A stretch of DNA of 25,976 nucleotides from a virus (lineage: Duplodnaviria > Heunggongvirae > Uroviricota > Caudoviricetes): positions 1-25,976 of the IMG/VR virus record IMGVR_UViG_2529293141_000017, one strand, 5' to 3'. Both the position numbers and the translations under genes were made by a program. Within the stretch, counting starts at the first letter, position 1, and each line of letters begins with the position of its first letter. A model generated the notes under the pieces. It was not told the origin of the DNA and made no database searches. It was given only the letters and a program-made list of their open reading frames with translations. Below, piece after piece: positions 9,222 to 25,976 of the stretch.

Positions 9222-9242
9222 GTGATGACCGGATTCAAAATT

Positions 9243-10846: not shown

Positions 10847-11035
10847 GTGTTAAGCACTGATCGGTTTATACGTGAAAAAGAATGCGAAAAGCTAACAGGC
10901 CTTAGCCGCTCATGCCGCTACCGCCTGGAAAAGGCCGGACAATTCCCATCACGTCGTAAACTTGGCGGGCGTTCTGTTGGCTGGTCTTTATCTGAGGTTT
11001 TGGCCTGGAAGGATAGCTGCAAGGCAGTTCACTAA
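10847..11035 (+). CDS. alpA: AlpA-family (MerR/Xis-like) transcriptional regulator
   Basis: 62 aa with LTGLSRS..YRL...FP..RKLGGRSVGW, matching the AlpA pattern. GTG start with an AAGGGGG Shine-Dalgarno. Confidence 0.75.
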   Translation: MLSTDRFIREKECEKLTGLSRSCRYRLEKAGQFPSRRKLGGRSVGWSLSEVLAWKDSCKAVH

Positions 11036-11215
11036 AAAGACTGGCGGCACACAGCCACCACCAATCCATTATTGACCGATACCGGGATCTCGGTATCGGG
11101 AATAAACGCCATAATACTGAGGTATAACCATGATGAAATATACGCCCGTACAGGGGCGGGGATTCGTTCGCCCTGGTGAATCTGAAAAGCCATGCTATAG
11201 GGTATTTTCAGGCAT

Positions 11216-11243
11216 AAAAAAAGCGGTCCCGATATGGAACCGC
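11216..11243 (-). terminator. Rho-independent terminator for the minus-strand repressor cassette
   Basis: On the minus strand: GGCGGTTCC atatc GGGACCGC followed by T7. Confidence 0.45.
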
Positions 11244-11311
11244 CTTTCTGAACAATTAACCCGCTGCGCCGTATGTGTCAACAATCATAAGCCCGAACAT
11301 GATAACCGTGA

Positions 11312-11515
11312 TCAGGCTGGTGGGCAATTACCTTGCTTGTTGGGGCCGTATTGTGCTGCCATTTTCATCCGTTCAGAACGTGAATATTTTTTTAGAAACT
11401 CATCAAGGACAAAAGCGCATGGAGCGAATCTTTCTGATTCATGCTCGAGCGCCATATTTTCGTGCTCTCTGTTCGTTTTTTGCGATGGTGTATTGGTTGA
11501 TTCTTTATTGGTCAT
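11312..11515 (-). CDS. Hypothetical small protein (67 aa), second gene of repressor cassette A
   Basis: Paralogue of 12028-12255: shared MTN start and a conserved C-terminal F-x-L-D/E-x-F-x-K-Y-x-R motif. It is followed by a terminator. Confidence 0.45.
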   Translation of the reverse strand: MTNKESTNTPSQKTNREHENMALEHESERFAPCAFVLDEFLKKYSRSERMKMAAQYGPNKQGNCPPA

Positions 11516-11572
11516 TGTGTGTACCTGTAAAGCAATGCGCCGTAGTACCTCACGCCACGGCGCTGATAGTAA

Positions 11573-11752
11573 TTATTCTGATTCTTTGGCCTTGCGGCGC
11601 TGGCGGCGTTTGATCTCGCCTTTTGCTGCCGTAACTAGAAATCCGGCGGTACTTTCGCCAGGTTCTTTAAGTTGCTCAATATCGGTCATTACCTCATGCG
11701 GGATTCTGACCGTTGTCATTTGTGATTTTGCGTTCTTTGCACCTGTTGCCAT
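11573..11752 (-). CDS. Ribbon-helix-helix DNA-binding protein (59 aa), candidate island repressor, copy A
   Basis: Own translation MATGAKNAKSQMTTVRIPHEVMTDIEQLKEPGESTAGFLVTAAKGEIKRRQRRKAKESE, with a beta-strand / helix / helix pattern. AGGAGA Shine-Dalgarno 7 nt upstream. Divergent from a plus-strand promoter and operators. Confidence 0.55.
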   Translation of the reverse strand: MATGAKNAKSQMTTVRIPHEVMTDIEQLKEPGESTAGFLVTAAKGEIKRRQRRKAKESE

Positions 11753-11771
11753 TTCTGGTTCTCCTGATAAT

Positions 11772-11864
11772 CGGTGTATTTCAGTATACGCAAAAAAAAG
11801 ATAAAAAAAGTCTTGCGGTGTATTTCACCTGAATGTAGATTTAAAAATGAAGGTGAAATACACC
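11772..11864. promoter_or_regulatory. Operator/promoter region A: GGTGTATTTCACC in three copies, two forming a perfect 13-bp inverted pair
   Basis: 11817-11829 and 11852-11864 are exact reverse complements; a third direct copy lies at 11772-11783. The region sits between divergent genes. Confidence 0.45.
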
Positions 11865-11938
11865 CAAAACAACAACGCCCCGCAGTGATGGGAACACATA
11901 CGGGGCGTCTAACCAAACCATTAATTGAGGTAACGATT

Positions 11939-12010
11939 ATGGCTATAAAAGAGCATAGCTTACTCTTTATACACACACAAACGCCCCGGAAACGGAATAA
12001 TCCGTTTCAT
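11939..12010 (+). pseudogene. Truncated 5' remnant of an Icd-like gene (paralogue of 12685-12879)
   Basis: MAIKEHSLLFIHTQT... shares the M-x-x-x-H-x-x-x-L-x-HTQT start with 12685, then loses similarity where cassette B begins. Confidence 0.35.
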
Positions 12011-12027
12011 AGTTCGGTTTTGTGCAC

Positions 12028-12255
12028 TCATCCTGGCGGTCGGTTTTTGCCGGATTTAAGCCGCCGTGGGTATTTATCGACAAAATCTTCAAGGGCAAAT
12101 TTTTCTGGTGGCACTAAGCGCGGCGCTGGTGGTGGTATTTTTGTTCTGGTTAGTTCTTCCTCAACTCTGGCGCAGGCTTCTGACTGCCTTTGCCGGATGA
12201 TTTCATCATCTTGCGTTTGCGTGTCTTGTATTGGTGATAGTGTGTTGTTGGTCAT
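12028..12255 (-). CDS. Hypothetical small protein (75 aa), second gene of repressor cassette B
   Basis: Paralogue of 11312-11515, same position in the cassette. Confidence 0.5.
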   Translation of the reverse strand: MTNNTLSPIQDTQTQDDEIIRQRQSEACARVEEELTRTKIPPPAPRLVPPEKFALEDFVDKYPRRLKSGKNRPPG

Positions 12256-12312
12256 GATACTGCCCTGTAAAGCAATGCGCCGTAGTACCTCACACCACGG
12301 CGCTGATAGTGA

Positions 12313-12492
12313 TTATTCTGATTCTTTGGCCTTGCGACGCTGGCGGTATTCAACTTCCCGCTTTAATGCAGCTGTAACAAACTGCCCTGTACTTTCGCCG
12401 GGCATTTTTACCGCCTCAACATTGTTCATAACTTCATGTGGAACCCTTGCCGCAACTGTTTGTGATTTTGCGTTTACTGCTTTTGTCGCCAT
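12313..12492 (-). CDS. Ribbon-helix-helix DNA-binding protein (59 aa), candidate island repressor, copy B
   Basis: MATKAVNAKSQTVAARVPHEVMNNVEAVKMPGESTGQFVTAALKREV.... GAGGGG Shine-Dalgarno upstream. Divergent from the replication operon. Confidence 0.6.
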   Translation of the reverse strand: MATKAVNAKSQTVAARVPHEVMNNVEAVKMPGESTGQFVTAALKREVEYRQRRKAKESE

Positions 12493-12542
12493 GTTGAGCA
12501 CCCCTCATAAAAAACAAATGCAGTATGCAGGAAAAAAAACAA

Positions 12543-12594
12543 GTGTTCAACACTTGACGTGTTTAACACCTCGATTTAAATTGGTGTTCAACAC
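12543..12594. promoter_or_regulatory. Operator/promoter region B: three GTGTT(C/T)AACAC palindromes overlapping a TTGACG-N17-TAAATT promoter
   Basis: Palindromes at 12543, 12559 and 12584 bracket the -35 and -10 of the plus-strand promoter feeding 12685 onward. Confidence 0.5.
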
Positions 12595-12684
12595 CTTATT
12601 TAGGCAAGGTGTAGAAACGACGAAACCCCGCACTGTAGGAGCAGTAACGGGGCTTCTAACCAACAACGTAAACGAGGAGCCGTT

Positions 12685-12879
12685 ATGGTTGCCGTAAATC
12701 ATATACCACACCTTGTACACACACAAACGGCCTTTGTGTGGCGTTTTCTGGCACTGAGTGCCGGAGAATCTCAAATCATCCACGTAACCGCCTGGACGGA
12801 ACGCGAAGCGCGTAACCTTTGCCCGTCCGGTTGTGTTGCTGTATTTGCCGCCCGTATTCGCCAGGGGGTAGGCTTATGA
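12685..12879 (+). CDS. Small protein, possibly Icd-like (host cell division inhibitor family); first gene of the early operon
   Basis: 64 aa with a GAGGAG Shine-Dalgarno. The motif FVWRFLALS...TEREAR...FAARI resembles Icd-like proteins of P4-type elements, from memory only. Confidence 0.5.
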   Translation: MVAVNHIPHLVHTQTAFVWRFLALSAGESQIIHVTAWTEREARNLCPSGCVAVFAARIRQGVGL

Positions 12880-13109
12880 GCCAGGAAATCACACTACAAC
12901 AGGCAGCAGAACGCGCCCACCAAATCGAAGTTATTTGCGCACTGGCAGAGGATTACCCTGGCATGATGACCGACAGCGAATCAGGGGCAATCATCGGCTT
13001 ACTTAAACGCCTTAGCGGTGAGGTCTGCGTATTCCTGAGCGATGAACAGGAAAGAAGAACGCTTATTTCTAACGAAAAAAAATGCGGAGGGGTACACCAT
13101 GTGCAATAA
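12876..13109 (+). CDS. Hypothetical protein (77 aa)
   Basis: ATG overlaps the upstream stop (ATGA); GGGGGT Shine-Dalgarno; translationally coupled. Confidence 0.5.
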   Translation: MSQEITLQQAAERAHQIEVICALAEDYPGMMTDSESGAIIGLLKRLSGEVCVFLSDEQERRTLISNEKKCGGVHHVQ

Positions 13110-13341
13110 CATCCGTCCGGACGCAGCCGCCGCCGCACTCACTACGCTGATGCACGCGCTTATTGATATTGAATGCACGGCAGAGCTTGCACAAAAGGAA
13201 GAACGGGAGGAATACACATTGTTCGCCCTGGAATGTATCCGATACACCGCCACGCGGTCGCTGAATGACGCTAAAAATATTCTTGTTGCAGATTGTGAAA
13301 ATGGGGGGGGGTTATGCGTGATGATCGTTTTAATTCCCTGA
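13099..13341 (+). CDS. Hypothetical protein (80 aa) with a G9 tract near its 3' end
   Basis: GGAGGGG Shine-Dalgarno before ATG 13099; overlaps the neighbouring genes. Confidence 0.45.
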   Translation: MCNNIRPDAAAAALTTLMHALIDIECTAELAQKEEREEYTLFALECIRYTATRSLNDAKNILVADCENGGGLCVMIVLIP

Positions 13342-13547
13342 AACAAGAATTTTCCGGCGTTCCTGATGATGCGGCTGATGCGCTTTCGTCAATGCCAGAA
13401 CTTATTAGAGCGGCTTTTTTCTTACTTTCCACGAGAGAATATAAATCAACGGGGCTTGATGTACTGAATATCGCCGCCGATTATGCGGAATATGTGGCAG
13501 AGGCGCGTTACAGAAGAAAATTTCCTGAGGATGTAAGCCATGCGTGA
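13314..13547 (+). CDS. Hypothetical protein (77 aa)
   Basis: ATG directly after the G9 tract, which serves as its Shine-Dalgarno; operon context. Confidence 0.5.
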   Translation: MRDDRFNSLKQEFSGVPDDAADALSSMPELIRAAFFLLSTREYKSTGLDVLNIAADYAEYVAEARYRRKFPEDVSHA

Positions 13548-13773
13548 TATTTACCACGAAACAACAGAACGCGTATTTCTTGCACTTTCTCACAGTGAAA
13601 ACATGCTGGAAATATTGCGCATATGGCTTGAAACACTTGGCGACAATGAACGCGACAAACAAAAATCAAGAATTGTCACGGCATTAATAACGCTTCTTGA
13701 GCCTGTAATAATGGAACTACAAGAAATAGAGACATTGCACGACAGATATAACGAACAGCACACCGGAGAATAA
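13540..13773 (+). CDS. Hypothetical protein (77 aa)
   Basis: Start overlaps the upstream stop (ATGCGTGA); operon context. Confidence 0.5.
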   Translation: MRDIYHETTERVFLALSHSENMLEILRIWLETLGDNERDKQKSRIVTALITLLEPVIMELQEIETLHDRYNEQHTGE

Positions 13774-13778
13774 AAATA

Positions 13779-14078
13779 ATGAAACTTAAATATTCTGGCT
13801 TAACTGCCAGTGGCAACACTCACCCTAAATTTACGCGCGGTGATATTTACCGCGACCAGTACGGCGGTACGGTAATGATTAAGGGCGTGGCGGGACGGTG
13901 CGTAACTTACCGCCGTGAAGGTTACGAATATGATTGCGTGATGCCTGTTTATCAGTTCCGGCGTGATTTTTCTCTGGTACAGACCGCGCCGCATAACGTG
14001 CCCACCAGCAGGGAGAAAGCACGCGCCAATATTCAGAAGATGAAAAACATGATTAACGGATTCAGGGGCAAGAAATGA
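13779..14078 (+). CDS. Hypothetical protein (99 aa), translationally coupled to the helicase gene
   Basis: Stop overlaps the helicase ATG (ATGA). Confidence 0.55.
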   Translation: MKLKYSGLTASGNTHPKFTRGDIYRDQYGGTVMIKGVAGRCVTYRREGYEYDCVMPVYQFRRDFSLVQTAPHNVPTSREKARANIQKMKNMINGFRGKK

Positions 14079-15472
14079 AAAGCGCACCGAACTTAAAAAA
14101 ACAGCCTTACGACAAGATGACCGAAGTCATCATTTTTGCGGGTAGTGATGCGTGGGCACATGCGAAACAGTGGCAGGAACAGGACGGGCGACTGGCTGGC
14201 GATAATGTGCCTCCCATTGTGCTGGCTGATGATCAACTGGATGAACTGGCAGACCTGAGAATCATCGACGAGGGGCGCTATTGTGTCCGGCTGTACAAGG
14301 CAGGCCACATCAGGCCATCAAATATTAATGCCATTGCGCACAAGCTGGCGGCGGCGGGCGTAACTGATGCGAATTATTACCCCGAAGGGATACACAGCCA
14401 GAAGCGGGAGAACTGGCGCGAATATCTGGAACGGGAGCGGGGGAAAAAGCCAGGGGAAGAACACCACCAGCGAAAAACCACGCTACCGATGAGCGTTGGA
14501 TCTGCCGGATACGACACGCAATTAGATTACGTGGTAAAGGGGATTATTCCGGCATCGTCGCTTTGCAGCATATACGGGGCGAGCGGTTCCTATAAATCAT
14601 TCCTTGCGGGTTCGTGGGCGTGTCACGTTTCCACGGGCCGCCAGTGGGGAGGCCGCAGGGTGGCGCATGGCGCTGTTCTCTATGTGGTTGGTGAAGGCGG
14701 TATCGGCGTTCCGCGTCGTGTAAAAGCCTGGGAGGTTGTGCACGGTGAGCAGGTGAAAAATCTGTATCTGGTAAACCGTCCCATCTTTCCGGCGGTCCCG
14801 CTTGATGTTGATGAAATGGTTATCGCTGCCCGTCAGGTGGAGCGGGAAACGGGTAAACCTGTACGCATGATTATTCTGGATACGCTGGCGCGTTGCTTTG
14901 GTGGGAATGATGAAAATGATTCCCGTGATATGGGGGCGTTTATCCGTGGTTGTGACGAACTGAAACGACGCACAGGGGCCACGGTGCTGGTGGTTCACCA
15001 TTCCGGCAAGGATGAGACGAAAGGCGCGCGCGGTTCCAGTGCATTTCGTGCATCACTGGATGCTGAATACCGGATACGCAGGGAGGACGCAGGAAGCGAA
15101 GCGCTGGTTATCTCATGCACCAAAATGAAGGACGCGGAGGAACTCAAAGAAGCCGCATATGACTTACGCGTGGTGGAGCTGTTTACCGACGCTGACGGGG
15201 AGTTAATCACGTCGCTGGTGGTGGTGGATAAGCCGCGCCCTCCCGTTGAACTGGAGCGCATCGAGGAGGCAGGCAACAAGACGGAAAACCATACCGCACT
15301 ATGGGGGTGCATCCGTTCACGCACACAGAACGGCGACAAGTGCACGATCCCGCTGTTACGTGATGACATGAAACGGCTTGGGTATGACGTGAAAAATATG
15401 CGGCGATGGTTAGCCAAACTGGAAAAAGACGCCGTGATTTACATTGATGGTGATGATGTAGGACCACTGTAA
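14075..15472 (+). CDS. Replicative ATPase/helicase (RecA-fold, RepA/AAA_25-like) with an N-terminal domain of unknown role
   Basis: Walker A GASGSYKS, Walker B-like ILDTLARCFGG, and VVHHSGKD...GARGSSA motifs. Confidence 0.8.
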   Translation: MKSAPNLKKQPYDKMTEVIIFAGSDAWAHAKQWQEQDGRLAGDNVPPIVLADDQLDELADLRIIDEGRYCVRLYKAGHIRPSNINAIAHKLAAAGVTDANYYPEGIHSQKRENWREYLERERGKKPGEEHHQRKTTLPMSVGSAGYDTQLDYVVKGIIPASSLCSIYGASGSYKSFLAGSWACHVSTGRQWGGRRVAHGAVLYVVGEGGIGVPRRVKAWEVVHGEQVKNLYLVNRPIFPAVPLDVDEMVIAARQVERETGKPVRMIILDTLARCFGGNDENDSRDMGAFIRGCDELKRRTGATVLVVHHSGKDETKGARGSSAFRASLDAEYRIRREDAGSEALVISCTKMKDAEELKEAAYDLRVVELFTDADGELITSLVVVDKPRPPVELERIEEAGNKTENHTALWGCIRSRTQNGDKCTIPLLRDDMKRLGYDVKNMRRWLAKLEKDAVIYIDGDDVGPL

Positions 15473-15672
15473 AAAGTGAGTAGCAAAAGTGAGTAATGAT
15501 GAGGTTTTTACAAAATATTAACACGATTACTCACTTTCTCACCTGTATACATGCTCAAAAGTGAGGAGTAAAAAAATCATTATGAAACATACACATAAAG
15601 CATCAAAAAATATCAAGTGAGACGAAGCGAGACGCTTTAAAAAGTGAGGTGTAAAAGTGAGCATGAGTGAGG
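15473..15672. repeat. Iteron array (AAAGTGAG, at least 7 direct and 1-2 inverted copies) with an AT-rich spacer: candidate island replication origin
   Basis: Copies at 15473, 15486, 15530 (inverted), 15558, 15615, 15641 and 15654, immediately 3' of the helicase gene. Confidence 0.55.
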
Positions 15673-15926
15673 AGATAACCAAAATGCGCAGAGACAGAAC
15701 AGGGCCGAAATATAAAGCGTTAGACATGACAGAGCACGCCTTAAAGGTGGCAATCAGGGTAATAGACCGCCACGCGGGGGAAGGATACGCGAAAGCACAT
15801 CCCGAACTGATAAGCGCATTCATGACCACGACGGCGGCAAATTTTGCCACGCTGACAGAGCGGGAGATTGCCGAAGCGGAACAGGTAACAACCATCAACG
15901 TTAAAACCGGAGAGGTGGAATCATGA
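15663..15926 (+). CDS. Hypothetical protein (87 aa)
   Basis: ORF begins inside the last iterons; its stop overlaps the next ATG. Confidence 0.4.
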   Translation: MSEEITKMRRDRTGPKYKALDMTEHALKVAIRVIDRHAGEGYAKAHPELISAFMTTTAANFATLTEREIAEAEQVTTINVKTGEVES

Positions 15927-16228
15927 GCGAACCAAAATTTGGTGAAAAATTTTACAAGCACAACGGACGGATCACGATTCTGCAAATAAGCGCAGCTACA
16001 CCAGGCTGGTGGGTTGAAACAGACGAAGGATCCTCACCCGTGGCATCATGGGCGCTTTGTGTGCTTAGTTACCCTGACCGCGATGTGTATCAGGATATTC
16101 TGCCTGTGATATCCACTGACAAAGGCATGAAACCCGTAGACATCAAAAACATGGGGTTTCAGTGCGTAATGCTCACTGAAAAAATGATGGAAGAGATGAA
16201 AAAGAACAATGCCGGATCGCTTCACTGA
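15923..16228 (+). CDS. Hypothetical protein (101 aa)
   Basis: Coupled ORF upstream of ssb. Confidence 0.5.
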   Translation: MSEPKFGEKFYKHNGRITILQISAATPGWWVETDEGSSPVASWALCVLSYPDRDVYQDILPVISTDKGMKPVDIKNMGFQCVMLTEKMMEEMKKNNAGSLH

Positions 16229-16237
16229 GGTGGCAAT

Positions 16238-16648
16238 ATGACAGCACAAATTGCAGCTTACGGGCGGCTGGTGGACGACCCGCAGGTAAAACAGAGCAGC
16301 AAGGGCACACCGATGACTCTGGCGCGTATGGCGGTATCGTTGCCATGCAGCCAGGCACATGACGGACAGGCGACGTTATGGTTATCGGTTATCGCATTTG
16401 GCAAACAGGCCGATTTCCTGGCTAAACATCAAAAAGGCGATGTTGCCAGCGTATCCGGCACGATGCAGGTAAGCCAGTGGACCGGACAGAACGGGGAAAC
16501 GCGGCGGGGGTATCAGGTTATTGCAGACAGCGTAATCAGTGCCCGCGCGGCACGTCCAGGCGGGAACAGACGCAAAACCACAGGCACACAGGGTAATCAG
16601 CCACCAGCGGGAGGCGATGACCCTTACGGTGACGGTATTCCGTTCTGA
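16238..16648 (+). CDS. ssb: Single-stranded DNA-binding protein
   Basis: OB-fold-like N-terminal region, a Gly/Pro/Gln-rich linker, and an acidic C-terminal tip DDPYGDGIPF (compare DDDIPF of SSB). Confidence 0.8.
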   Translation: MTAQIAAYGRLVDDPQVKQSSKGTPMTLARMAVSLPCSQAHDGQATLWLSVIAFGKQADFLAKHQKGDVASVSGTMQVSQWTGQNGETRRGYQVIADSVISARAARPGGNRRKTTGTQGNQPPAGGDDPYGDGIPF

Positions 16649-16658
16649 GGGGGTGACG

Positions 16659-16907
16659 ATGGTACATGACCGCATAGCGGAGGAACTCGAGGCAAAAGGC
16701 TTTTACCGGAGGGCGTCGGCGCGATGGGGTGAAGTCATGCAACTGGTGGAGACAGACAAGGAACGGCATCAGGTTACGATGCGACGGCTGGAATGTTCCA
16801 GGAAGGCACAGAGGCCACCGGAGCCGCCAACGGAGAACTACGCAGACCTGAGAAATGCAGTAAATCGCACTTACGCAGACATGGGGCTGAGCAAATTAGC
16901 AGAGTAG
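16659..16907 (+). CDS. PerC-family-like transcriptional regulator (82 aa)
   Basis: MVHDRIAEELEAKGFYRRASARWGEVM resembles the PerC/Pch N-terminal motif; GAGGGGG Shine-Dalgarno. Confidence 0.5.
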   Translation: MVHDRIAEELEAKGFYRRASARWGEVMQLVETDKERHQVTMRRLECSRKAQRPPEPPTENYADLRNAVNRTYADMGLSKLAE

Positions 16908-17173
16908 GAATATCAGAACCACACCATACAGCCGGAGCAATCCGGCTTTTTGTTATTTTTTGTAAATTATTTGTTCGTGGTTGTTCCACGTTGTTCACTG
17001 AGCGGATCGGCATATTTTACCCGAACTGAATCATGATTATTCTCGCCCGTGGTGCCAGGACGCTGGGGCCACTTTCCCGCCTGTTAATGTGCTCGCCAAT
17101 ATTCATTACCAGGCGGGAAAACGATCGGTGCGATTGCTGATTTCCTTATGAAAAACGGTTGAGTGTTTGCCGC

Positions 17174-17211
17174 GTCCTGGAGTTCCTTACTTAACCCCAG
17201 GACTTTTTTTT
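17174..17211 (+). terminator. Terminator-like hairpin plus T8 ending 1 nt before the major capsid ATG
   Basis: GTCCTGG ... CCAGGAC stem followed by TTTTTTTT and then ATG 17212. Confidence 0.45.
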
Positions 17212-18369
17212 ATGCCGAGAATAATCGAATTACGCCAGCAGAAAACCGCCATTAAAAATCAGATGCGCGACATGCTGGAGAACGCTGAAAAAGAAAACCG
17301 CAGTCTTAACGATGCTGAGGGCGCAAAATTTGACGAATTACGCGCTAAAGCTGAATCCCTCGATAAAGACATTTCCCGCCTTGAAGCCATTGCAGACGAA
17401 GAGCGCAGCAAGCCAGGTAAAAGCAGTCAGACCACTGACCCCGCAGAACTACGAAACTACATTCTGACGGGTGAAACCCGCGCATTAAGTACAGGCGTTC
17501 CCGCTGATGGTGGTTATACCGTTATCCCCGAACTGAACACCGAAATCATGCGAATGCTGACGGATGAATCCACCATGCGCCGCATCTGTACCGTGAAGAA
17601 AATCAGCAGCAACGAGTTTAAGCAGCTTGTTTCCGCTGGCGGTGCGACCGTTAACCACGGTGAAGAGGGTAAGGCACGCGAACAGACCAGCACCCCGCAG
17701 ATTAACGAGGTGAGCATTAAGCTGTATCCGGTCTATGCGTACCCGCGCACCACACAGGAAATCGTGGATTTTTCCGATGTGGACATCCTTTCATGGCTGA
17801 CGGGTGAGATTGGCGACACCTTCACGGAAACCGAAGAAAGCGATCTGGTTGTGGGCGACGGTGACAAAAAAGCAAAAGGTTTTTTATCCGTACCCCGTGC
17901 AGAGAAGAACGACAAAGAGCGTGATTTTGGTACGTTGCAGGTAATTAAACCTTCCGAATCTCTGGCGTGGACATCTGCGGACCCGTTGATCGACCTGAAA
18001 TTTGCATTACGTAAAAAATACCGCAAAAACGCGGTCTGGGTGGTTAACTCCACGACGGCGGCAAAACTTCAGAAGGTGAAGAACGCGAACGGTGATTACA
18101 TCTGGCGCGACCGTTTACAGGCGGGTGATCCTGATACGTTGCTGGGCCTTCCGGTCGAATATCTGGAGTTTATGCCTGATAACGTTATTGCCCTGGGTGA
18201 CTTCAAACGCGGTTACTACATTGTTGATCACGAAACAGGTGTTCGCACCAGACCGGACAACCTCACAGAGCCGGGCTTCATCAAAATTTTCACGCAGAAA
18301 TATTTAGGCGGTGGCGTGGTGGATTCGAACGCGATCAAGATTCTGGAACTGCCACAGGACGACGATTAA
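17212..18369 (+). CDS. Major capsid protein (HK97 fold)
   Basis: Coiled-coil delta-domain-like N-terminus, ~385 aa, followed by a prohead protease gene. The TTG at 17167 is rejected because it would read through the hairpin. Confidence 0.88.
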   Translation: MPRIIELRQQKTAIKNQMRDMLENAEKENRSLNDAEGAKFDELRAKAESLDKDISRLEAIADEERSKPGKSSQTTDPAELRNYILTGETRALSTGVPADGGYTVIPELNTEIMRMLTDESTMRRICTVKKISSNEFKQLVSAGGATVNHGEEGKAREQTSTPQINEVSIKLYPVYAYPRTTQEIVDFSDVDILSWLTGEIGDTFTETEESDLVVGDGDKKAKGFLSVPRAEKNDKERDFGTLQVIKPSESLAWTSADPLIDLKFALRKKYRKNAVWVVNSTTAAKLQKVKNANGDYIWRDRLQAGDPDTLLGLPVEYLEFMPDNVIALGDFKRGYYIVDHETGVRTRPDNLTEPGFIKIFTQKYLGGGVVDSNAIKILELPQDDD

Positions 18370-18423
18370 CAGCATACAGAAGGGGCTTAAAAGCCCCTTT
18401 AGTGTTTTATGGGTGAAAAAATT

Positions 18424-18981
18424 ATGAAGAGTATGGAAATCCGGTCATCGGAAATCACCACCAGCGGAGCCGGTACGCTGACGGGCTACGTTGTTCGCTG
18501 GGATAAGCTTTCAGAACTGTTATGGGGTGAGTTTTACGAAAAATTCCAGCGGGGAGCGTTTACTGAATGGCTTGCAGCGGGTAATGACGTTCGCGGCCTG
18601 TATGAGCATGACCACAGTATGTTACTGGGGCGTACCCGTTCCGGCACGCTGAAACTGGAAGAGGACGAAACAGGGTTACGCTTTGAACTGACCCCACCGG
18701 ATACCAGCACAGGGCGGGACGTTATCGAACTGGTTAAACGTGGTGATATATCCGGCATGAGCTTTGGCTTTCGTTCCCGTAAGGATGTATGGGATACCAC
18801 AACAGATCCATGCGTGCGCACCGTGCTGGTGGCGGAACTGTACGAAATTACCGTTACATCCGTTCCGGCTTACCCTGATTCCGGCGTGGAGCTGGCCCGC
18901 CGTTCCCTGTATGAGCAGCACCCCGAAAAAATGCCGCGTGCGGATAATCGCCGCTGGTGGGTGGATTTAGCGGGGGTGTGA
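18424..18981 (+). CDS. Prohead maturation protease (HK97-family)
   Basis: Position between capsid and portal genes, and size. Alternative ATG at 18409. Confidence 0.8.
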   Translation: MKSMEIRSSEITTSGAGTLTGYVVRWDKLSELLWGEFYEKFQRGAFTEWLAAGNDVRGLYEHDHSMLLGRTRSGTLKLEEDETGLRFELTPPDTSTGRDVIELVKRGDISGMSFGFRSRKDVWDTTTDPCVRTVLVAELYEITVTSVPAYPDSGVELARRSLYEQHPEKMPRADNRRWWVDLAGV

Positions 18982-18982
18982 T

Positions 18983-20194
18983 ATGTGGCCTTTCAGAAGA
19001 AAAAAAGAGCAGCGCAGCATGACGCTTGATGAATTTATGGCGCTGGCTGGCACATCGAACACGGGGGCGGGTGAGTACGTATCATCGGGGACAGCGGAAT
19101 CACTGCCCGCCGTCATGAACGCCGTCACGGTCATCTCTGAGGCGGTGGCTACCATGCCGTGTTACCTGTACCTGGTACGCAATGAGAAGGGGAAGGAGGC
19201 CCGCGAGTGGCTTGATTCTCATCCGGTCGATCACATCCTCAACGAGCGCCCGAACGCATGGCAAACCCCCTACCAGTTTAAGCGAATGATGATCCGCCAC
19301 TGCCTGTTAAACGGTAATGCTTATGCGGTGATTCAGTGGGGGCGTGATGGTTTTCCGGCGGCTTTACATCCTTACCCGCCGCAGTCGGTGAACGTGGAGC
19401 AGACAGGCGAACACAACTGGCGCTACTGCATCACTGACGCCTACACCGGAAACACCCGCAACTATTTACCGTGGGAAGTACTTCACCTTCGTTACTCCAC
19501 GGATGACGGCTTTATGGGGCGCTCACCTGTAACCATCTGCCGCGAATCGCTGGGGCTTGGGCTGGCCCAACAACGCCACGGCGCGAGCGTGATGCGTGAT
19601 GGCATGATGGCGGCAGGGGTTATCACGTCAGGCGAATGGCTGGACGGCGTGAAGGGCAAACAGGCATTAGCCGCACTGGAACGCTACAAAGGGGCCAGAA
19701 ACGCCGGAAAAACGCCCATCCTTGAAGGGGGGATGAGCTATCAGCAGCTGGGCATGAGTAATCAGGATGCTGAATGGCTGGCCTCCCGTCGCTTCACCAT
19801 TGAAGACATCGCCCGAATGTTCAACGTCTCGCCGATTTTTTTGCAGGAATACAGCAACAGCACCTACAGCAATTTCAGCGAGGCAAGCCGCGCATTTCTC
19901 ACCATGACGATGCGCCCGTGGCTGGCGAACTTTGAGCAGCAGATAAAAAACGCCCTGCTGGTGGCCTCGCCTGTACCTGGTATCCGGTATCAGGTGGAGT
20001 TTGACAGCGCGGACCTGTTACGGGCCACACCTGGCGAACGCTTTGCCACCTATGAGCGCGGCATCAAATCCGGCGTTATGTGCCCGAACGAAGCCCGCGA
20101 ACGTGAAGGACTGTCACCGCGTGATGGTGGTGATGAGTTCAGTCAGGCATGGAAACAGGAAGTAAAAATCAGCGAGGGAGAAAAACCGGAATGA
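18983..20194 (+). CDS. Portal protein
   Basis: 403 aa immediately downstream of the protease, with a GGGGG Shine-Dalgarno. Confidence 0.88.
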   Translation: MWPFRRKKEQRSMTLDEFMALAGTSNTGAGEYVSSGTAESLPAVMNAVTVISEAVATMPCYLYLVRNEKGKEAREWLDSHPVDHILNERPNAWQTPYQFKRMMIRHCLLNGNAYAVIQWGRDGFPAALHPYPPQSVNVEQTGEHNWRYCITDAYTGNTRNYLPWEVLHLRYSTDDGFMGRSPVTICRESLGLGLAQQRHGASVMRDGMMAAGVITSGEWLDGVKGKQALAALERYKGARNAGKTPILEGGMSYQQLGMSNQDAEWLASRRFTIEDIARMFNVSPIFLQEYSNSTYSNFSEASRAFLTMTMRPWLANFEQQIKNALLVASPVPGIRYQVEFDSADLLRATPGERFATYERGIKSGVMCPNEAREREGLSPRDGGDEFSQAWKQEVKISEGEKPE

Positions 20195-20529
20195 ACATAG
20201 GGCGACTGCGTGACAGGATAACGATTCAGACCCTGAAACAGACCAGAGCCATGACGGGCGAAATACTCGAAACGTGGGAGGACGGTCACACACTCTGGGC
20301 AAGCGTGAACATGATCAGCAGCAAGGAGGCCATTTCATCGGGCGCAGAGCTGGCGATTGGTACCGTAAGGATCTGGATACGGTACCGGAAGGACATCAAC
20401 GCCACCAGCCGGATAAAGGTCAGTACGGGGCCGCTGGCGGGGCGTGTACTGAATATCATCGGGCAGCCGTTGCCGGATGTCGCCAGGACACGCCTTGAAA
20501 TTCTTTGTCGTGAGGGCGCGGAAAAATGA
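20191..20529 (+). CDS. Head-tail adaptor / head closure protein
   Basis: Small coupled ORF after the portal gene (ATGA overlap); the longer start at 20149 is rejected. Confidence 0.55.
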   Translation: MNIGRLRDRITIQTLKQTRAMTGEILETWEDGHTLWASVNMISSKEAISSGAELAIGTVRIWIRYRKDINATSRIKVSTGPLAGRVLNIIGQPLPDVARTRLEILCREGAEK

Positions 20530-20822
20530 CAGAAGAACTTATCACCCTGGAAGAAGTGAAACTCCATTGCCGTATCGATGGAGACGAGGAAGACCAGTTA
20601 ATCAGCGGATACATTGCCGCATCGCTTGAGGCGTGCCAGATACACATAGGCAGGCGCTTTGATGACGGGCTGGAGTTCACGCCAGCCATAAAGATTGGCT
20701 GCATGATGTTTATCGCTCACCTGTATGAGAATCGCCAGATTGTCGCGGATAACGCAAAAACACGCGTACCCATGACGATTGGCGCACTCTGGACGGCTTA
20801 CCGTGATGTGGGGGTGTACTGA
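20526..20822 (+). CDS. Head-tail connector (gp6-like)
   Basis: 98 aa, coupled, in the typical position. Confidence 0.55.
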   Translation: MTEELITLEEVKLHCRIDGDEEDQLISGYIAASLEACQIHIGRRFDDGLEFTPAIKIGCMMFIAHLYENRQIVADNAKTRVPMTIGALWTAYRDVGVY

Positions 20823-21262
20823 TGCCGTGGCAACCATTAAGACGATGCACAGAACCAGGCTGTAACAGGCGCGTTAAATCCGGCAAGTGTGAAGAGCACA
20901 GGCGGGCGGCATGGCGTGCAGAGGATGCCAGACGAGGACACCGCCGCGCGCGTGGATATTCCAGACAGTGGGACAAATACCGCGCCATGTATCTGAGTAA
21001 AAACCCGTTATGCGTGCGATGCCTTGAGAAGGGGATATATACGCCCGCCGTGGTGGTGGATCACATTATCCCGATTAATGGCGGTGATGATGTTCTCTTC
21101 TGGCCCGAATGGAACCATCAACCATTGTGTCAGGCGTGTCATAACCAGAAAACGAAATGGCTTGATCCGGCAACAAAAAGCAAGCGTGCCGCAGGTGGAT
21201 TTCGTGAAGAGGAAGAACGGGCCGCTAACCGCAATAACTGGATGTATGACGCTGATGAATGA
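20822..21262 (+). CDS. HNH endonuclease (terminase-associated)
   Basis: Cys-rich N-terminus and DHIIP...N.QPLC..CHN.KT HNH motif; located just upstream of terS. Confidence 0.85.
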   Translation: MPWQPLRRCTEPGCNRRVKSGKCEEHRRAAWRAEDARRGHRRARGYSRQWDKYRAMYLSKNPLCVRCLEKGIYTPAVVVDHIIPINGGDDVLFWPEWNHQPLCQACHNQKTKWLDPATKSKRAAGGFREEEERAANRNNWMYDADE

Positions 21263-21431
21263 GCGGGAACAAAACCGCCTTATCCGTGGACTTATAAGGC
21301 AGCGTGACGCATGGAAGACACAGGAAACAGGGCATAAAGATAAAGCGTCAGGACGTGCAGAACGCATCACAGCGAAGCGATTAACCGACCGTGACCGCGA
21401 GGTTATGGAATGTTTCCGCAATCGCTGGTGA
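21255..21431 (+). CDS. Candidate small basic protein (58 aa) overlapping the HNH stop
   Basis: Own translation MNEREQNRLIRGLIRQRDAWKTQETGHKDKASGRAERITAKRLTDRDREVMECFRNRW; the ATG overlaps the HNH stop by 8 nt. Confidence 0.3.
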   Translation: MNEREQNRLIRGLIRQRDAWKTQETGHKDKASGRAERITAKRLTDRDREVMECFRNRW

Positions 21432-21552
21432 TGCTGTATGACGGGGTGGGGGGGCGTTTTCAGGACAAACCCGACCCCGCCGGGCACCGAACGCCTCCTC
21501 AAATTTTTATGCACGGGAATTTTTTGAAAAATAATCTGGCGAAAAAATAAGC

Positions 21553-21909
21553 ATGGCAAGACCACCGAAAGCCCCCGCCTACCTGGATGATATCGCCGTG
21601 AAGCAGTGGCGGGAAAAATCGCGGCAGCTTGCGGAACGGGGTGACCTGACCCCCGCCGACTGGAGTAATCTGGAACTGTATTGCGTCAATTACTCGATAT
21701 ACCGGAAAGCCGTCGCAGACCTTGCGGCGCGCGGGTTCAGCATTGTTAACAGTCAGGGCGGAGAGAGCAGAAACCCCGCATTAAGCGCGAAATCCGACGC
21801 GGAAAGAGTGATGATAAAAATGGCCTCCTTGCTCGGTTTTGACCCGATAAGCCGCCGTAAAAATCCACCGGAAACAGAAGAAGAGGACGAGCTTGACCGC
21901 CTGGAATAA
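21553..21909 (+). CDS. terS: Terminase small subunit (P27-family-like)
   Basis: MARPPKAPAYLDD... N-terminus; overlaps the terL start. Confidence 0.75.
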   Translation: MARPPKAPAYLDDIAVKQWREKSRQLAERGDLTPADWSNLELYCVNYSIYRKAVADLAARGFSIVNSQGGESRNPALSAKSDAERVMIKMASLLGFDPISRRKNPPETEEEDELDRLE

Positions 21910-23554
21910 GTACGCAGAAGACGTAAAAACGGGCAAAATTCCGGCCTGTAAACGGCTGAAACAGGCCGTTAAACGGTACTTTTCGGACCTTGAAAGCCCC
22001 CTTTACACGTTCGATCGTGAGGTTGTGGAGCGGTTTATTGCCTTTTCCAGGGTGTGCCCGCACGTAAAAGGGCCGATGCGTGGCAGACCCATTGAGCTGG
22101 AGCCGTGGCAGCAGTTCGCCTTTGCGTGCATCCTCGGCTTTAAGGTTAAGGCCACCGGACGGCGCAAATACACGAGCGCCTTTATCGAAGTGCCGCGCAA
22201 AAATGCGAAATCCACGACCGCCGCGATTCTGGCTAACTGGTTTCTGATTATGGAGAACGGGCAGCAGGATATTTACACCGCAGCGGTGAGCCGTGACCAG
22301 GCGCGGATCGTTTTTGATGATGCGCGTCAGATGTGCCTTTTATCCCGACCGTTACGCAGGCGGGTGAATATTCAGGCCCACAAGGTGATGCACCCGAAAA
22401 GCAACAGCCTGTTAAAGCCGCTGGCAGCAAAAGCGGCAACCATCGAGGGAACAAACCCCAGCCTTTCCATCGTGGACGAATACCACCTACACCCCGATAA
22501 CGGCGTTTATTCCGCGCTTGAGCTGGGGATGGGCGCACGTCCCGAAGGGCTGTTATTTGCCATTACCACATCGGGCAGTAACGTCGTTTCAACCTGTAAA
22601 CAGCACTATGATTATTGCTGCCAGATCCTGGACGGCGAAGAGGTCAACGATTCAATTTTTGTGCTGATTTACGAGCTGGACGACGAAAACGAGGTTGATG
22701 ATCCGGCGATGTGGATAAAGGCTAACCCTAACATCGATGTTTCCGTGGATCGTGAAAAACTGGCCTCAACCATCCAGAAAGCGCGGGGTATTCCGTCGCA
22801 ATGGGTGGAGATGATGACAAAGCGATTTAATATCTGGTGCCAGGGGGCTACCCCGTGGATGGGTAACGGCGCATGGGCTGAGTGTGCCGGAACGTTCACG
22901 GAGGAAGATTTACACGGGCAGGAGTGTTACGCGGGGCTGGACTTATCATCAACCAGCGATATTTCCAGCGTGTGCTATGCCTTTCCGGTCGGTAAAAATA
23001 TCATGCTGGTTTCCCGTCATTATCTGCCGGAGTTCCAGCTACAGAACCCCGCCAATAAAAACCGCGCTGTCTATCGCCAGTGGGCTAAAGCGGGCTGGAT
23101 ACGCACAACGCCAGGTGACTGCATTGATTACGACCGGATCAGAGATGACATCATGCAGGATGCGGAGAAATTTAATATCAGGCTGGTGGGCTTTGATACG
23201 TGGAACGCCACGCATCTCAGGACGCAATTACAGGGGGCTGGTTTTGAGGTGGAGCCGTTCCCGCAAACCTACCTCAGATTCAGTCCGGCGGCGAAATCGT
23301 TCGAAGTTTTTGTTAACCGCAGGGTGATTGTGCATCGTGGCGATCCGGTGTTGTCCTGGTCGATGAGTAACGTCGTGATGCAGAGTGACGCGAACGCCAA
23401 TATCAAGCCGAACAAGAAAAAATCACCGAACAAGATAGACCCGAGCGTGGCGGCGCTGATGGCGTTTGGTACATTCCAGGCAGAGCATGAGGATTTTGCT
23501 TTTGATATAAGCGACAGCCACCGCCAGAAACTGGAAGAATTTAGCGGGGTGTAA
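21893..23554 (+). CDS. terL: Terminase large subunit
   Basis: 553 aa with ATPase motifs (VPRKNAKST; LSIVDEYH) and a nuclease-like C-terminal region. Confidence 0.9.
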   Translation: MTAWNKYAEDVKTGKIPACKRLKQAVKRYFSDLESPLYTFDREVVERFIAFSRVCPHVKGPMRGRPIELEPWQQFAFACILGFKVKATGRRKYTSAFIEVPRKNAKSTTAAILANWFLIMENGQQDIYTAAVSRDQARIVFDDARQMCLLSRPLRRRVNIQAHKVMHPKSNSLLKPLAAKAATIEGTNPSLSIVDEYHLHPDNGVYSALELGMGARPEGLLFAITTSGSNVVSTCKQHYDYCCQILDGEEVNDSIFVLIYELDDENEVDDPAMWIKANPNIDVSVDREKLASTIQKARGIPSQWVEMMTKRFNIWCQGATPWMGNGAWAECAGTFTEEDLHGQECYAGLDLSSTSDISSVCYAFPVGKNIMLVSRHYLPEFQLQNPANKNRAVYRQWAKAGWIRTTPGDCIDYDRIRDDIMQDAEKFNIRLVGFDTWNATHLRTQLQGAGFEVEPFPQTYLRFSPAAKSFEVFVNRRVIVHRGDPVLSWSMSNVVMQSDANANIKPNKKKSPNKIDPSVAALMAFGTFQAEHEDFAFDISDSHRQKLEEFSGV

Positions 23555-23567
23555 TGAGGTCAGCAGC

Positions 23568-23849
23568 ATGACAGAAGCCGAAATACTGCGATTAATCCGC
23601 CGCGTCTCTGGAATCAGCCAGCAGGCTGACGAACAGACCACGCAGCCGGACAGCGTGACAGCCGAAAATTATGCGCGTGTTGTTGCTGAGGTGATGCGCC
23701 GTGATGGTATCCAGCTTAATGATGCGGATATGCGCGACATACGGATCCGCGTTCTGGAAATGCTGGCCTACAATCGCCGCGTTGAACTGTATCGGGAGAA
23801 GGAGAAAATCACGTACCACTGGAAGAAGCCGGAGCGGTTACGGCGGTAA
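23568..23849 (+). CDS. Hypothetical protein (93 aa), last gene of the packaging operon
   Basis: GAGG Shine-Dalgarno; followed by a terminator at 24052. Confidence 0.5.
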   Translation: MTEAEILRLIRRVSGISQQADEQTTQPDSVTAENYARVVAEVMRRDGIQLNDADMRDIRIRVLEMLAYNRRVELYREKEKITYHWKKPERLRR

Positions 23850-23963
23850 CTTGTTGATTAAAAGGCGGCTCAATTCTGAGCTGGGTAGCTGACGGCGGTA
23901 ACTGTTTTATATTCCCGATAGCGCAAAAATGCGCGGTCGGGCAGAATGACCACCACCTCAATC

Positions 23964-23998
23964 GTGACGGAGAGTGACAACCAGTGACACACCGTGAC
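23964..23998. repeat. Four GTGAC motifs phased at exactly 10 bp: candidate protein-binding array
   Basis: GTGAC at 23964, 23974, 23984 and 23994. Confidence 0.5.
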
Positions 23999-24051
23999 AA
24001 AAAGACGGTTTAACCGTTCATTAAAAATCGACGTGATTTTGTGCTATCAGG

Positions 24052-24075
24052 ATGACGTGGCCAACGTCATTTTTT
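24052..24075 (+). terminator. Rho-independent terminator
   Basis: ATGACGT ggcca ACGTCAT followed by a T-run. Confidence 0.5.
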
Positions 24076-24107
24076 AGCGAAAAATTCTGATTAAGGTCAC
24101 TGGCTGA

Positions 24108-24233
24108 ATGGTCATAATGACCACGCAGACCATCGAGGCAACCATAGCGATCATCGTTACGGTTGGAGCTTTTCCGCCATTGGTGGAAAAGGTGCACATC
24201 TGGATCATCATTACGGTGATCAAGGGTATGTAA
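24108..24233 (+). CDS. Candidate 41-aa hydrophobic peptide
   Basis: Own translation MVIMTTQTIEATIAIIVTVGAFPPLVEKVHIWIIITVIKGM. Weak Shine-Dalgarno; not in the provided ORF track because it is under 60 aa. Confidence 0.2.
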   Translation: MVIMTTQTIEATIAIIVTVGAFPPLVEKVHIWIIITVIKGM

Positions 24234-24409
24234 AACCCACCAGCCTGATTAAATGTTAACCGGAAAAAAAATCCGGTAGCCCCGTTATGGGGATCCCCAT
24301 ATCGACATTAACGCCCCTCATGAATTGGTGCGCTTCCCCCTGGAAAGATTACCCGCCTGTATATTTCTTGTGTCTATTTGTTCCACGTTGTTTCATACAG
24401 TGCACCGAA

Positions 24410-24435
24410 CGGTGTAGTTAATGGTGTAGTCAATT
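24410..24435. repeat. Candidate attR core (CGGTGTAGTTAATGGTGTAGTCAATT)
   Basis: 25/26 identical to 9196-9221, in direct orientation. Confidence 0.55.
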
Positions 24436-24515
24436 TGCGATTTTTGGCACTTTTTCAATGATAATTGTTTAATTAAATCAATGACTTGACCTGGTGTGGT
24501 GATAAAAGGACATAT

Positions 24516-25976
24516 TTATTCATCTTTCGGCGCAGAATGCTGGCGACCAAAAATCACCTCCATCCGCGCACCGCCCAGCATGCTCTCTCCGGCGACGATT
24601 TTACCCTCATATTGCTCGGTGATTTCGCGGGCTACCGCCAGCCCTACACCTTGCCCAGGGCGTAAAGTATCAACCCGTTGACCACGGTCGAAAATGACCT
24701 CTCGCTTGCTTAATGGAATACCGGGGCCATCATCCTCGACCACAATATAGAGATGCTCGTCGGTTTGCCTTGCAGAAATTTCGACAAACTCGAGGCAATA
24801 TTTACAGGCATTATCCAGCACGTTGCCCATCACCTCGACAAAATCGTTCTGCTCACCGACAAAGCTGATCTCTGGCGAAATATCGAGAGAGATATTGACC
24901 CCTTTGCGTTGATACACTTTGTTCAGCGCTGAGGTGAGATTGTCCAGCAGTGGGGCGACCGGATGCAGCTCGCGGCTGAGCAATGTCCCGCCGCGCATAC
25001 TGGCACGATGCAGGTAGTAGCCAATTTGCTGTGAAATGCGGCTGATTTGCTCCAGCATTACCGGCTCAGCATCACTGACGCTCATCTTTTCACTACGCAG
25101 AGAACGCAGCGTACTTTGCAGCACCGCCAGTGGCGTTTTCAGACTATGGGTCAGGTCGGTGAGCGTCGTACGGTATTTGTCGTAACGTTCGCGTTCACTT
25201 TTTAACAATCGGTTCAGGTTTCGTACCAGACTGGTCAGTTCTCGCGTTGTGGCTGGATTGAGCAATTCGCGGTTATGTTCTTCCAGTTCGCGGACTTCTT
25301 TTGCCAGGGCTTCGATGGGGCGTAAACTCCACCAGGCGGCGACCCACAGCAGCGGGATCACTAACAGCAGATTGGCTGAGAGCACATAGATAAACCAGCT
25401 CCAGACCATATAGGAACTTTTTAGCTCCACCGGAATGGTATCCACCACCACAATGGTTAATTTTGGCATCCGCGATGTTGCCGGGTAGACGTTTACTGCC
25501 ACCGAGTGGGTCATCTCCGCGTCGTCATCATCTTCCCGCACTTCCTGCAACTGTTGCTGTATCGAATGATCTCCACTCAGCAAGAGGCTGGTATCGTTAA
25601 CATCCGCTTCAATTTCATGAAAACCATTCGATTTCAGCCAGTCAGGCTGGATCATCTTCATCAGCCAGGGCACGTCACGTTGCGCCCATAAAAGCTGCCC
25701 GTTCTCATCATAAATTAGCGTCATGGTGGGGCTTTGCTTGTCGATATTTTCGGGTAACTCGACATGCAACTTATTGTTTTCCCACTTCGCAAGGGTATAG
25801 AACAGATTGCTCTCGCCACGTAACAGCCGAAACGTAGTTTTATCGAAACTGACGCTATAACCGATCAGCGCGACCATTCCGTAGGCAAGCGAAAGCACCA
25901 GTACTACCGCTGCCGTTGCCAACAGAAAACGTACCCGCAGCGAGAGCGGGAAAAAAAGACGCAGTAATTTTTTCAT
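24516..25976 (-). CDS. phoQ: Sensor histidine kinase PhoQ
   Basis: 486 aa starting [25 protein letters not shown]..., with a periplasmic sensor region, HAMP and a HisKA/ATPase core; the start lies at the window edge. Confidence 0.96.

Follow-up and report, generated by a model that had tools for sequence, protein, structure and literature searches.

Probable cos region between the HNH and terS genes of a capsid-forming PICI closely related to EcCIEDL933

The island and its packaging genes

The stretch of DNA analysed here (25,976 nucleotides; referred to as the window) carries an island of ∼15.4 kb (∼9072-24509) that sits between roxA and phoQ. In island-free E. coli genomes, the sequence equivalent to window positions 9000-9071 directly adjoins phoQ, and the core GGACATATTT is found at both island junctions (9062-9071 and 24510-24519). 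The flanking genes, the integration and regulatory genes at one end of the island, and the genes surrounding the region of interest are as follows.

7873-9003, minus strand: roxA, left neighbour of the island
9222-10472: Int, with Arm-DNA-bind_3 and Phage_integrase domains
10847-11035: AlpA (E=5e-18)
20822-21262, plus strand: HNH endonuclease of the HK97 gp74 type, which assists terminase in packaging (Pfam HNH, E=1.8e-8; phrog_144, E=8e-45)
21255-21431, plus strand: 58-aa basic protein, matching phrog_3173 end-to-end (E=6.6e-37)
21553-21909, plus strand: small terminase TerS of the P27 family (Terminase_4, E=1.3e-23; TIGR01558, E=1.9e-16)
21893-23554, plus strand: large terminase TerL of the HK97 type, with TerL_ATPase and TerL_nuclease domains
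24516-25976, minus strand: 3' end of phoQ, right neighbour of the island

The int and alpA genes at one island end are followed by a replication module, and the replication and other genes of the island encode a DUF4222 protein, an AAA_25 RepA-like helicase, SSB and PerC. The head and packaging set comprises the major capsid protein, prohead protease, portal, head completion protein, a gp6-like connector, HNH, TerS and TerL, each with a Pfam or PHROG match. No tail or lysis families were detected among the island ORFs scanned, which included part of the small unannotated ones. This order of genes, the island size (elements of the class span ∼10-18 kb) and the lack of a tail module and of lysis genes are those of capsid-forming PICIs (cf-PICIs). 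Judged by its gene layout, which is the defining character of the class, the element is a cf-PICI. Elements of this kind fill self-encoded capsids exclusively with their own DNA, and cross genera using borrowed phage tails.

The prototype cf-PICI, EcCIEDL933 of E. coli EDL933, shares the roxA-phoQ insertion site with the window island, and their packaging modules (window 16922-23858) are 97.6% identical. The cos region described below is near-identical in the two elements, the small ORF included: the HNH-terS gap differs by one G in a G-run, and two substitutions fall at the stop of the small ORF. The replication modules differ, with an AAA_25 RepA-like helicase in the window and a DUF927 primase in the EDL933 element. 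In published experiments, a helper phage induces EcCIEDL933, which then spreads in small capsids attached to tails of the helper; transfer of EcCIEDL933 depends on its own packaging genes, and packaging of satellite and helper is reported to be mutually exclusive (10.1101/2022.09.08.507074).

The packaging proteins were compared with those of characterized phages. The HNH protein is 39% identical to HK97 gp74 (E=2e-19) and 37% identical to SfV orf53, and its PDB match is 5H0M, an HNH endonuclease. A TerS-based search of phage records retrieved SfV, SfI, SfII, SfIV and ST64B; between the SfV and island TerS proteins, identity is 36% (E=4e-21), while comparison with HK97 gp1 detected no similarity. 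The sole PDB match of TerL was HK97 TerL (6Z6D, E=6.4e-42). The region between the HNH gene and terS, accompanied by an HK97-type TerL, has the gene setting of an HNH-dependent 3'-cos site.

The HNH gene ends with TGA at 21260-21262, and the ATG of the small ORF, at 21255, overlaps this stop as ATGAATGA. A sequence-only reading of this DNA had described a 58-aa basic ORF overlapping the HNH stop, and the coordinates, the overlap sequence and a calculated pI of 10.7 (16 K+R versus 10 D+E) bear this out. At this position, Klebsiella, Pluralibacter, Rosenbergiella, Winslowiella, Rahnella, Erwinia, Pantoea, Kosakonia, Pectobacterium, Proteus and Providencia elements encode homologues of 46-58 aa. 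A helix at the N-terminus is common to these proteins, as is the motif RDRE(L/V)xECFRNR at the C-terminus, and their arginine codons alternate between CGC and AGA. The dN/dS values of 0.06-0.28 obtained in eight pairwise comparisons indicate constraint at the protein level. The small ORF is a genuine, lineage-restricted gene. It is missing from the Xenorhabdus, Orbaceae and Pasteurellaceae relatives and from one Citrobacter element, and in elements that lack it the HNH gene ends ∼10-40 nt ahead of the conserved G-box described below. Its absence from several lineages argues that it is no core part of the cos machinery.

Searches for a function of the small protein gave no match to Pfam, NCBIfam or PDB profiles; PGAP annotates it as a hypothetical protein, and an exhaustive HMMER search of 1.84 billion proteins returned only 10 cluster representatives. 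The AlphaFold2 model consists of two helices with a disordered basic linker between them (pLDDT 75, pTM 0.35), and with such a pTM was too weak to serve as a query in a fold search. In published work, mutation of the EcCIEDL933 'hypothetical gene 1792' merely lowered transfer. This gene could be the small ORF or equally the 93-aa ORF located after terL (phrog_1561), RefSeq giving new locus tags only. At a guess, the small ORF encodes a putative, dispensable-looking accessory protein, perhaps with a role in packaging or regulation.

Conserved blocks in the HNH-terS gap

The gap between the small ORF and terS is 121 nt long (21432-21552), with the terS ATG at 21553. Four blocks can be distinguished in it.

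21443-21469, plus strand: G-box GGGGTGGGGGGGCG (21443-21456) together with TTTTCAGGACAAA, upstream of the predicted cut, at the predicted last-packaged end
21470-21485, plus strand: variable spacer, the least conserved part of the region
21486-21503, plus strand: C-rich box (C-box), conserved, the predicted cosN holding the predicted 10-nt 3' cohesive end
21504-21535, plus strand: A/T-tract block TTTTTATGCACGGGAATTTTTTGAAAAATAAT, the most conserved block, predicted TerS recognition site (cosB-like) at the predicted first-packaged end

Two motifs ahead of terS had been pointed out from the sequence alone. Both are present: the G-rich motif GGGGTGGGGGGGCG lies at 21443-21456 and the second, CCCGACCCCGCCGGGC, at 21470-21485, in the variable spacer. 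When the window was searched for the G-box consensus GGGGTGGGGG with at most one mismatch, one occurrence was found, compared to 1.81 expected from shuffled sequences. The composition of the G-run is therefore unexceptional within 26 kb, and the significance of the G-box derives from its conservation.

Conservation of the gap was assessed using loci gathered through TerS, 80 from IMG/VR and 80 from species-representative genomes. The sample included Klebsiella, Citrobacter, Enterobacter, Pectobacterium, Erwinia, Rahnella, Aeromonas, Xenorhabdus and Photorhabdus, as well as Proteus, Providencia, Gilliamella, Frischella and several Pasteurellaceae. A common plan was found 5' of terS. Its first half consists of the G-box GGGGTGGGGG, ∼6 bases, GACAAA and ∼15-20 variable bases; the second half consists of (A)ACCGCCCCCTCCT(C/T)AAATTTTTAYGCACGG, 2-3 bases, TTTTTTTGAAAATAA, a variable run and the ATG.

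The G-box is near-invariant among the 57 unique loci. Its distance to the T-tract (the TTTTTAYRC block) is 48-50 nt in all 57, compared to 34-66 nt between the TTTTTAYRC block and the terS ATG. The fixed spacing of G-box and T-tract, combined with a varying distance to the ATG, indicates one rigid module untied from the start codon. Relatives match the C-box/T-tract block of the window at 75-90% identity and its terS coding sequence at only 69-87%; the conservation of the noncoding module is thus equal to or above that of the flanking genes. The only variable stretch in the region is 21470-21483, which houses the second motif, and in Klebsiella, Aeromonas and Xenorhabdus the spacer is swapped for unrelated sequence. 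By sequence comparison, the module is conserved from Enterobacterales to Pasteurellaceae, in several families of Gammaproteobacteria.

Comparison with mapped cos ends and a particle-derived contig

When two run-off sequencing reads both stop so as to leave a gap between them, this is the signature of a 3' overhang. In the case of SfI, a relative of SfV, run-off sequencing of virion DNA compared with the prophage revealed such a gap of 10 nt, TGCCCGCCCC (PMC3636060). HK97 DNA carries a 10-nt 3' overhang; HK97 TerS binds positions +15 to +29, recognising a G beside an A-tract, and the gp74 HNH protein stimulates cleavage (PMC11331095, PMC9410871). The junctions of SfV and HK97 are given below, with the mapped overhang in inner brackets and the omitted bases as an ellipsis.

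SfV: GAGGGGAGGGGCGGG TCAAATCTCTGTGACCTGACGTCTTCCGGAC [TGCCCGCCCC] ATCGTTTTTTTATACCCGCGAAAAATG ... ATG
HK97: GGGCAGGGGGGGGG ATCAAATCTTCAAAACCTTTGCCCCAAATGAC [CGCCGCCAAA] (end of record) GTTTGAATTTAACGCTAACCCGATTTTTTTAG ... ATG

Nine junctions, among them those of the window, SfV, ST64B and HK97, were aligned with MAFFT and were collinear throughout, with G-runs at the equivalent relative position in HK97, SfV and ST64B. In this alignment, the SfI/SfV overhang TGCCCGCCCC corresponds to window positions 21488-21497, and the terminal CGCCGCCAAA of HK97 to 21489-21498, so that the two independent transfers agree within 1 nt. The HK97 TerS site at +15 to +29, CTAACCCGATTTTTT, aligns to ∼21512-21527; it was transferred by position only, because comparison of the window TerS with HK97 gp1 reveals no similarity. 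On this basis, the cut is predicted to lie, most likely, in the C-box, generating a 10-nt 3' cohesive end at ∼21488-21498 (CGAACGCCTCC). The placement derives from an alignment of low-complexity, C-rich sequence and may be several bases off, and is best read as 21486-21503 plus or minus a few bases.

The Shigella/Salmonella phages SfV, SfI and ST64B, which pair a P27-family TerS with an HNH protein, are complete temperate phages with the same gene order as the window (HNH, cos, terS, terL), and SfV encodes homologous TerS and HNH proteins with 36-37% identity to those of the island. Their junctions contain the G-box, C-rich box and T-tract in that order, as in the window, and the mapped 10-nt cohesive end of SfI, TGCCCGCCCC, falls inside the C-box (PMC3636060). 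The ST64B sequence CTGCCCGCCCCCTCGAATTTTTATACCCGCG resembles CACCCGCCCCCTCAAATTTTTTCGCACGG of a Klebsiella cf-PICI, C-box and T-tract being common to both. However, these phages lack a small ORF in the interval from HNH to cos, the window C-box (CGAACGCCTCC) is degenerate relative to theirs, and the T-tract/TerS-site sequence of the window differs from theirs, as would follow from each element having its own specificity. HK97, with a homologous TerL and an HNH protein 39% identical to that of the window, shows three features collinear with the window: a G-run that precedes the cut by ∼42 nt, the C-rich overhang CGCCGCCAAA and the TerS site CCCGATTTTTTT. It differs in its gp1 TerS, for which no relationship to the P27-family protein of the island was detected, and in the ∼320 nt separating HNH from cos, which contain an unrelated unannotated ORF. 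The cosQ-cosN-cosB region of lambda has the same order with respect to the direction of packaging (an element on the last-packaged side, the nicking site, and the small-terminase site by its gene), but lambda has 5' overhangs, does not need an HNH protein, and its terminase subunits and sequences are unrelated to those of the window.

Further evidence came from a sequence assembled from particle DNA. The record vB_KppS-Ant (LR881103, 16,548 bp) was obtained from K. pneumoniae DSM 30104 with a Nextera XT library and SPAdes assembly (PMC8006926). Its gene content was found to be that of the cf-PICI of this strain. A later preprint on a cf-PICI named KpCIDSM30104 reports cohesive ends for the DNA of that element (10.1101/2025.02.11.637232). 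The record ends with ...TTTTCAGGAC (in longer form, ...GGGGTGGGGGAGGTTTTCAGGAC) and starts with ACGAAAAGG..., 22 nt ahead of terS. In the integrated copy (K. pneumoniae ATCC 13883, L085), this end and start are 69 nt apart, and the missing sequence, GAACACGAGGGCGCCAGGCACCACCCGCCCCCTCAAATTTTTTCGCACGGTGATTTTTTTGAAAATAAA, includes the C-box. The G-box is kept intact on the right end of the contig, which is unbroken from terS through terL, the region after terL and the integrase to HNH.

Assembly from a circular or concatemeric template would keep all of the sequence, and in tagmentation libraries the last tens of bases of linear molecules are poorly sampled. Given this under-sampling of termini, the simplest reading of the 69-nt loss is that the physical ends lie within that interval. 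The vB_KppS-Ant contig stops 22-48 nt short of the predicted termini, and it locates the break to the 69-nt interval in a single assembly of one relative. Other records gave no information for or against the site: that of Klebsiella phage P12620-1 is a mosaic assembly from which no junction was obtained, and a scan of IMG/VR and metagenome contigs with AATTTTTAYGCACGG gave 239 matches, 95 of them with the full module and 0 ending at the site, the viral matches being mostly prophage predictions and the metagenome ones mostly chance occurrences.

The 121-nt gap separating the HNH gene and small ORF from terS is very probably the cos region of a cf-PICI closely related to EcCIEDL933. The sequence-only reading had proposed the HNH-terS region as a candidate cos, and this proposal gains support from the collinearity with HK97, SfV and ST64B, the types of the packaging proteins, the contig break in a relative and the conservation of the module. 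Of the two motifs singled out in that reading, neither is likely to be the cut, since the G-run is retained on the packaged contig and CCCGACCCCGCCGGGC is variable spacer.

An alternative is cleavage at these motifs, the G-run and CCCGACCCCG, which form a 10-nt inverted repeat (21442-21451 and 21470-21479). The repeat is 90% complementary, and the minimum-free-energy fold pairs the G-run with the C-rich sequence. Nevertheless, we regard a cut at this position as improbable: the C-rich arm, part of the variable spacer, is missing in Klebsiella, Aeromonas and many others, the G-box is intact on the right end of the vB_KppS-Ant contig, and in the alignment the mapped overhangs of SfI and HK97 fall 30-40 nt further downstream. 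A hairpin or cruciform by the G-run was likewise rejected, the predicted single-stranded DNA fold being no better than that of shuffled sequences (z=0.40) and the C-rich partner unconserved.

The conserved blocks might instead serve mainly as signals for terS-terL expression (a late promoter or operator, an anti-termination site or a translational element), a role that would be compatible with cos. An AT-rich block does lie close upstream of terS and contains the near-palindrome AATTTTTTGAAAAAT. Against this, a promoter scan of the gap gave a single match, on the opposite strand, with no sigma-70-like site on the plus (gene) strand, and the gap contains no terminator-like site, Rfam match or significant fold. 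The T-tract keeps a fixed distance from the G-box but lies 34-66 nt from the terS ATG, depending on the locus, and the same blocks flank the experimentally mapped cos ends of HK97 and SfI. Expression as the main function is accordingly very improbable.

Packaged ends at another place, such as the 23850-24050 that the sequence-only reading had suggested as its alternative, or headful (pac) packaging, are hardly conceivable. Direct repeats do occur in 23840-24000 (ACGGCGGTAACT twice and GTGACA four times), but they adjoin attR and are more easily explained as sites for a recombinase or regulator. The vB_KppS-Ant contig is contiguous from terS through terL, the downstream region and the integrase to HNH; the island TerL belongs to the HK97 cos type and an HNH partner is present, and cohesive ends have been reported for a cf-PICI (10.1101/2025.02.11.637232).

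Predicted working of the site and the G-box

With the cos region assigned to the HNH-terS gap, a packaging scheme can be proposed. Homology and published work on relatives suggest that the element very probably uses its own HNH, TerS and TerL, and that its DNA is cohesive-ended. Following helper-phage induction, the island would replicate as concatemers, as published studies of related elements indicate. The remaining steps are modelled on HK97, SfV and lambda. The P27-family TerS of the island would bind the A/T-tract/CACGG block at 21504-21535, immediately 3' of the cut. The HK97-type TerL, together with the gp74-like HNH protein, would then introduce staggered nicks in the C-rich box (21486-21503), leaving a 3' cohesive end of ∼10 nt at ∼21488-21498. 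Packaging would proceed from the terS side across the att junction, with HNH, the small ORF and the G-box entering last. The motor would reach the G-box (21443-21456) ∼35-45 bp, about four helical turns, before the next cut, and there the G-box may, speculatively, play a part in termination like that of lambda cosQ, or serve as a positioning or docking site for HNH and TerL.

Upstream of the predicted nicking site, at the predicted last-packaged end and at a conserved distance, the G-box occupies the position of a cosQ-like element. By analogy, it may be a cosQ-like or nuclease-docking element, and this is put forward as a candidate role. A broader proposal, that the G-box GGGGTGGGGG is an undescribed, universal third element of HNH-dependent 3'-cos sites, held rigidly about four helical turns upstream of the cut in HK97-like phages and in cf-PICIs ranging from Enterobacterales to Pasteurellaceae and acting in termination or HNH docking as a functional counterpart of lambda cosQ, and that the adjacent small protein is a lineage-specific cos-binding factor, is speculative and rather unlikely to hold. 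No discussion of the HK97 G-run was found in a literature search.

Sites and elements of the kinds described here are already known, and the working of such sites as currently understood is unchanged. In a literature search that was incomplete and carries limited weight, no paper was found mapping the cos site of a cf-PICI, EcCIEDL933 included. What is new is a near-nucleotide placement of cos for cf-PICIs, a three-part conserved cos architecture, and an upstream G-box at fixed spacing that is common to cf-PICIs, HK97, SfV and ST64B.

The analysis narrows the site to ∼21486-21535 and separates its shared parts, the G-box and the C-rich cut site, from a private TerS block. Since the former are common to helper-type phages and the TerS block differs, the TerS block is, speculatively, the probable basis of exclusive packaging. 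This division into shared and private parts offers a testable account of how satellite and helper packaging are kept exclusive. It also defines a minimal cos cassette usable for engineered cf-PICI-based DNA delivery, and a sequence signature for locating cos sites of cf-PICIs and of the HK97 type in genomes.

The predicted cos region and its variation in relatives

An inverted repeat (window 21457-21462 and 21525-21530, also 21514-21530) was found on either side of the predicted cut, with TTTTCA as one half and TGAAAA as the other. Both halves are conserved, the first lying 3' of the G-box (the conserved G-run element upstream of the cut) and the second inside the T-tract block, the predicted TerS site. 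Elements of the Xenorhabdus type carry TCAAAAA instead, and this corresponds to the other half of the palindromic TTTTTTTGAAAA block. These matches may reflect symmetric binding of a protein to the two sides of the predicted cosN.

The G-run of the G-box varies from 5 to 8 G among the E. coli relatives. An enlarged form, the tandem array GGGGTAGGGGTAGGGGTAGGGGTAGGGGTA with five GGGGTA units, was observed at ∼3850-3880 of a Xenorhabdus hominickii locus (L127), where it precedes terS by ∼120-150 nt. This array has G-tracts in sufficient number for an intramolecular G-quadruplex.

Related terS genes were also identified at 5-8 separate loci within single genomes. The same cos module (G-box, C-rich box and T-tract block) is present at most of these multi-copy loci, and is absent upstream of terS at a few of them, e.g., L105 and L149/L151.

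Comparison loci with related terS genes in single genomes
X. kozodoii: L097, L102, L105, L160, L161
X. innexi: L103, L123, L126, L128, L135
Pasteurellaceae bacterium Macca: L149-L156

Small ORFs near the packaging genes

Two small ORFs, one in the window and one in HK97, were noted close to the packaging genes:
Window 23568-23849: 93-aa ORF directly 3' of terL, matching phrog_1561 end to end (E=1.5e-55), with no known function
HK97 record 39393-39599 (L167 494-700): unannotated ORF of ∼67 codons between HNH and cos

The 93-aa ORF has a counterpart in EcCIEDL933, the prototype cf-PICI, in which loss of "hypothetical gene 1792" reduces transfer without abolishing it. This gene may be either the 93-aa ORF or else the 58-aa ORF located between HNH and cos. 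The HK97 ORF likewise overlaps the HNH stop (as ATGA); its product is acidic and its sequence is unrelated to that of the 58-aa ORF of the window.

Relationship to other cf-PICIs

The packaging module of EcCIEDL933 is 97.6% identical to that of the window, whereas the replication/accessory modules (window 11130-15472 versus L287 22170-26171) differ, with an AAA_25 RepA-like helicase in the window and a DUF927 primase at that place in EDL933. The similarity of the former and the dissimilarity of the latter indicate that cf-PICIs sharing one integration site exchange modules.

The record LR881103 (vB_KppS-Ant, L001) is named as an Escherichia phage in GenBank, and vB_KppS-Ant has been presented as a filamentous ssDNA prophage (PMC8006926). 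Its gene content (capsid, portal, HNH, TerS, TerL, integrase and primase) identifies it as the cf-PICI of K. pneumoniae DSM 30104 in its packaged form.

Repeats at the island ends

The stretch 23840-24000, adjoining attR, contains two copies of ACGGCGGTAACT (at 23840 and 23892, just 3' of the last island ORF) and four GTGACA repeats (at about 23964-23999). These repeats are probably the reason why the sequence-only reading named 23850-24050 as an alternative place for the packaged DNA ends; they look more like recombinase or regulator binding sites. The 36-nt imperfect direct repeat GTGCAACGATCGGTGTAGTTAATGGTGTAGTTAATT (9185-9221 and 24399-24435) is located ∼100 nt inward of each island end. 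Both island junctions (9062-9071 and 24510-24519) carry GGACATATTT, which overlaps the phoQ stop codon and is likely the crossover core of the island.
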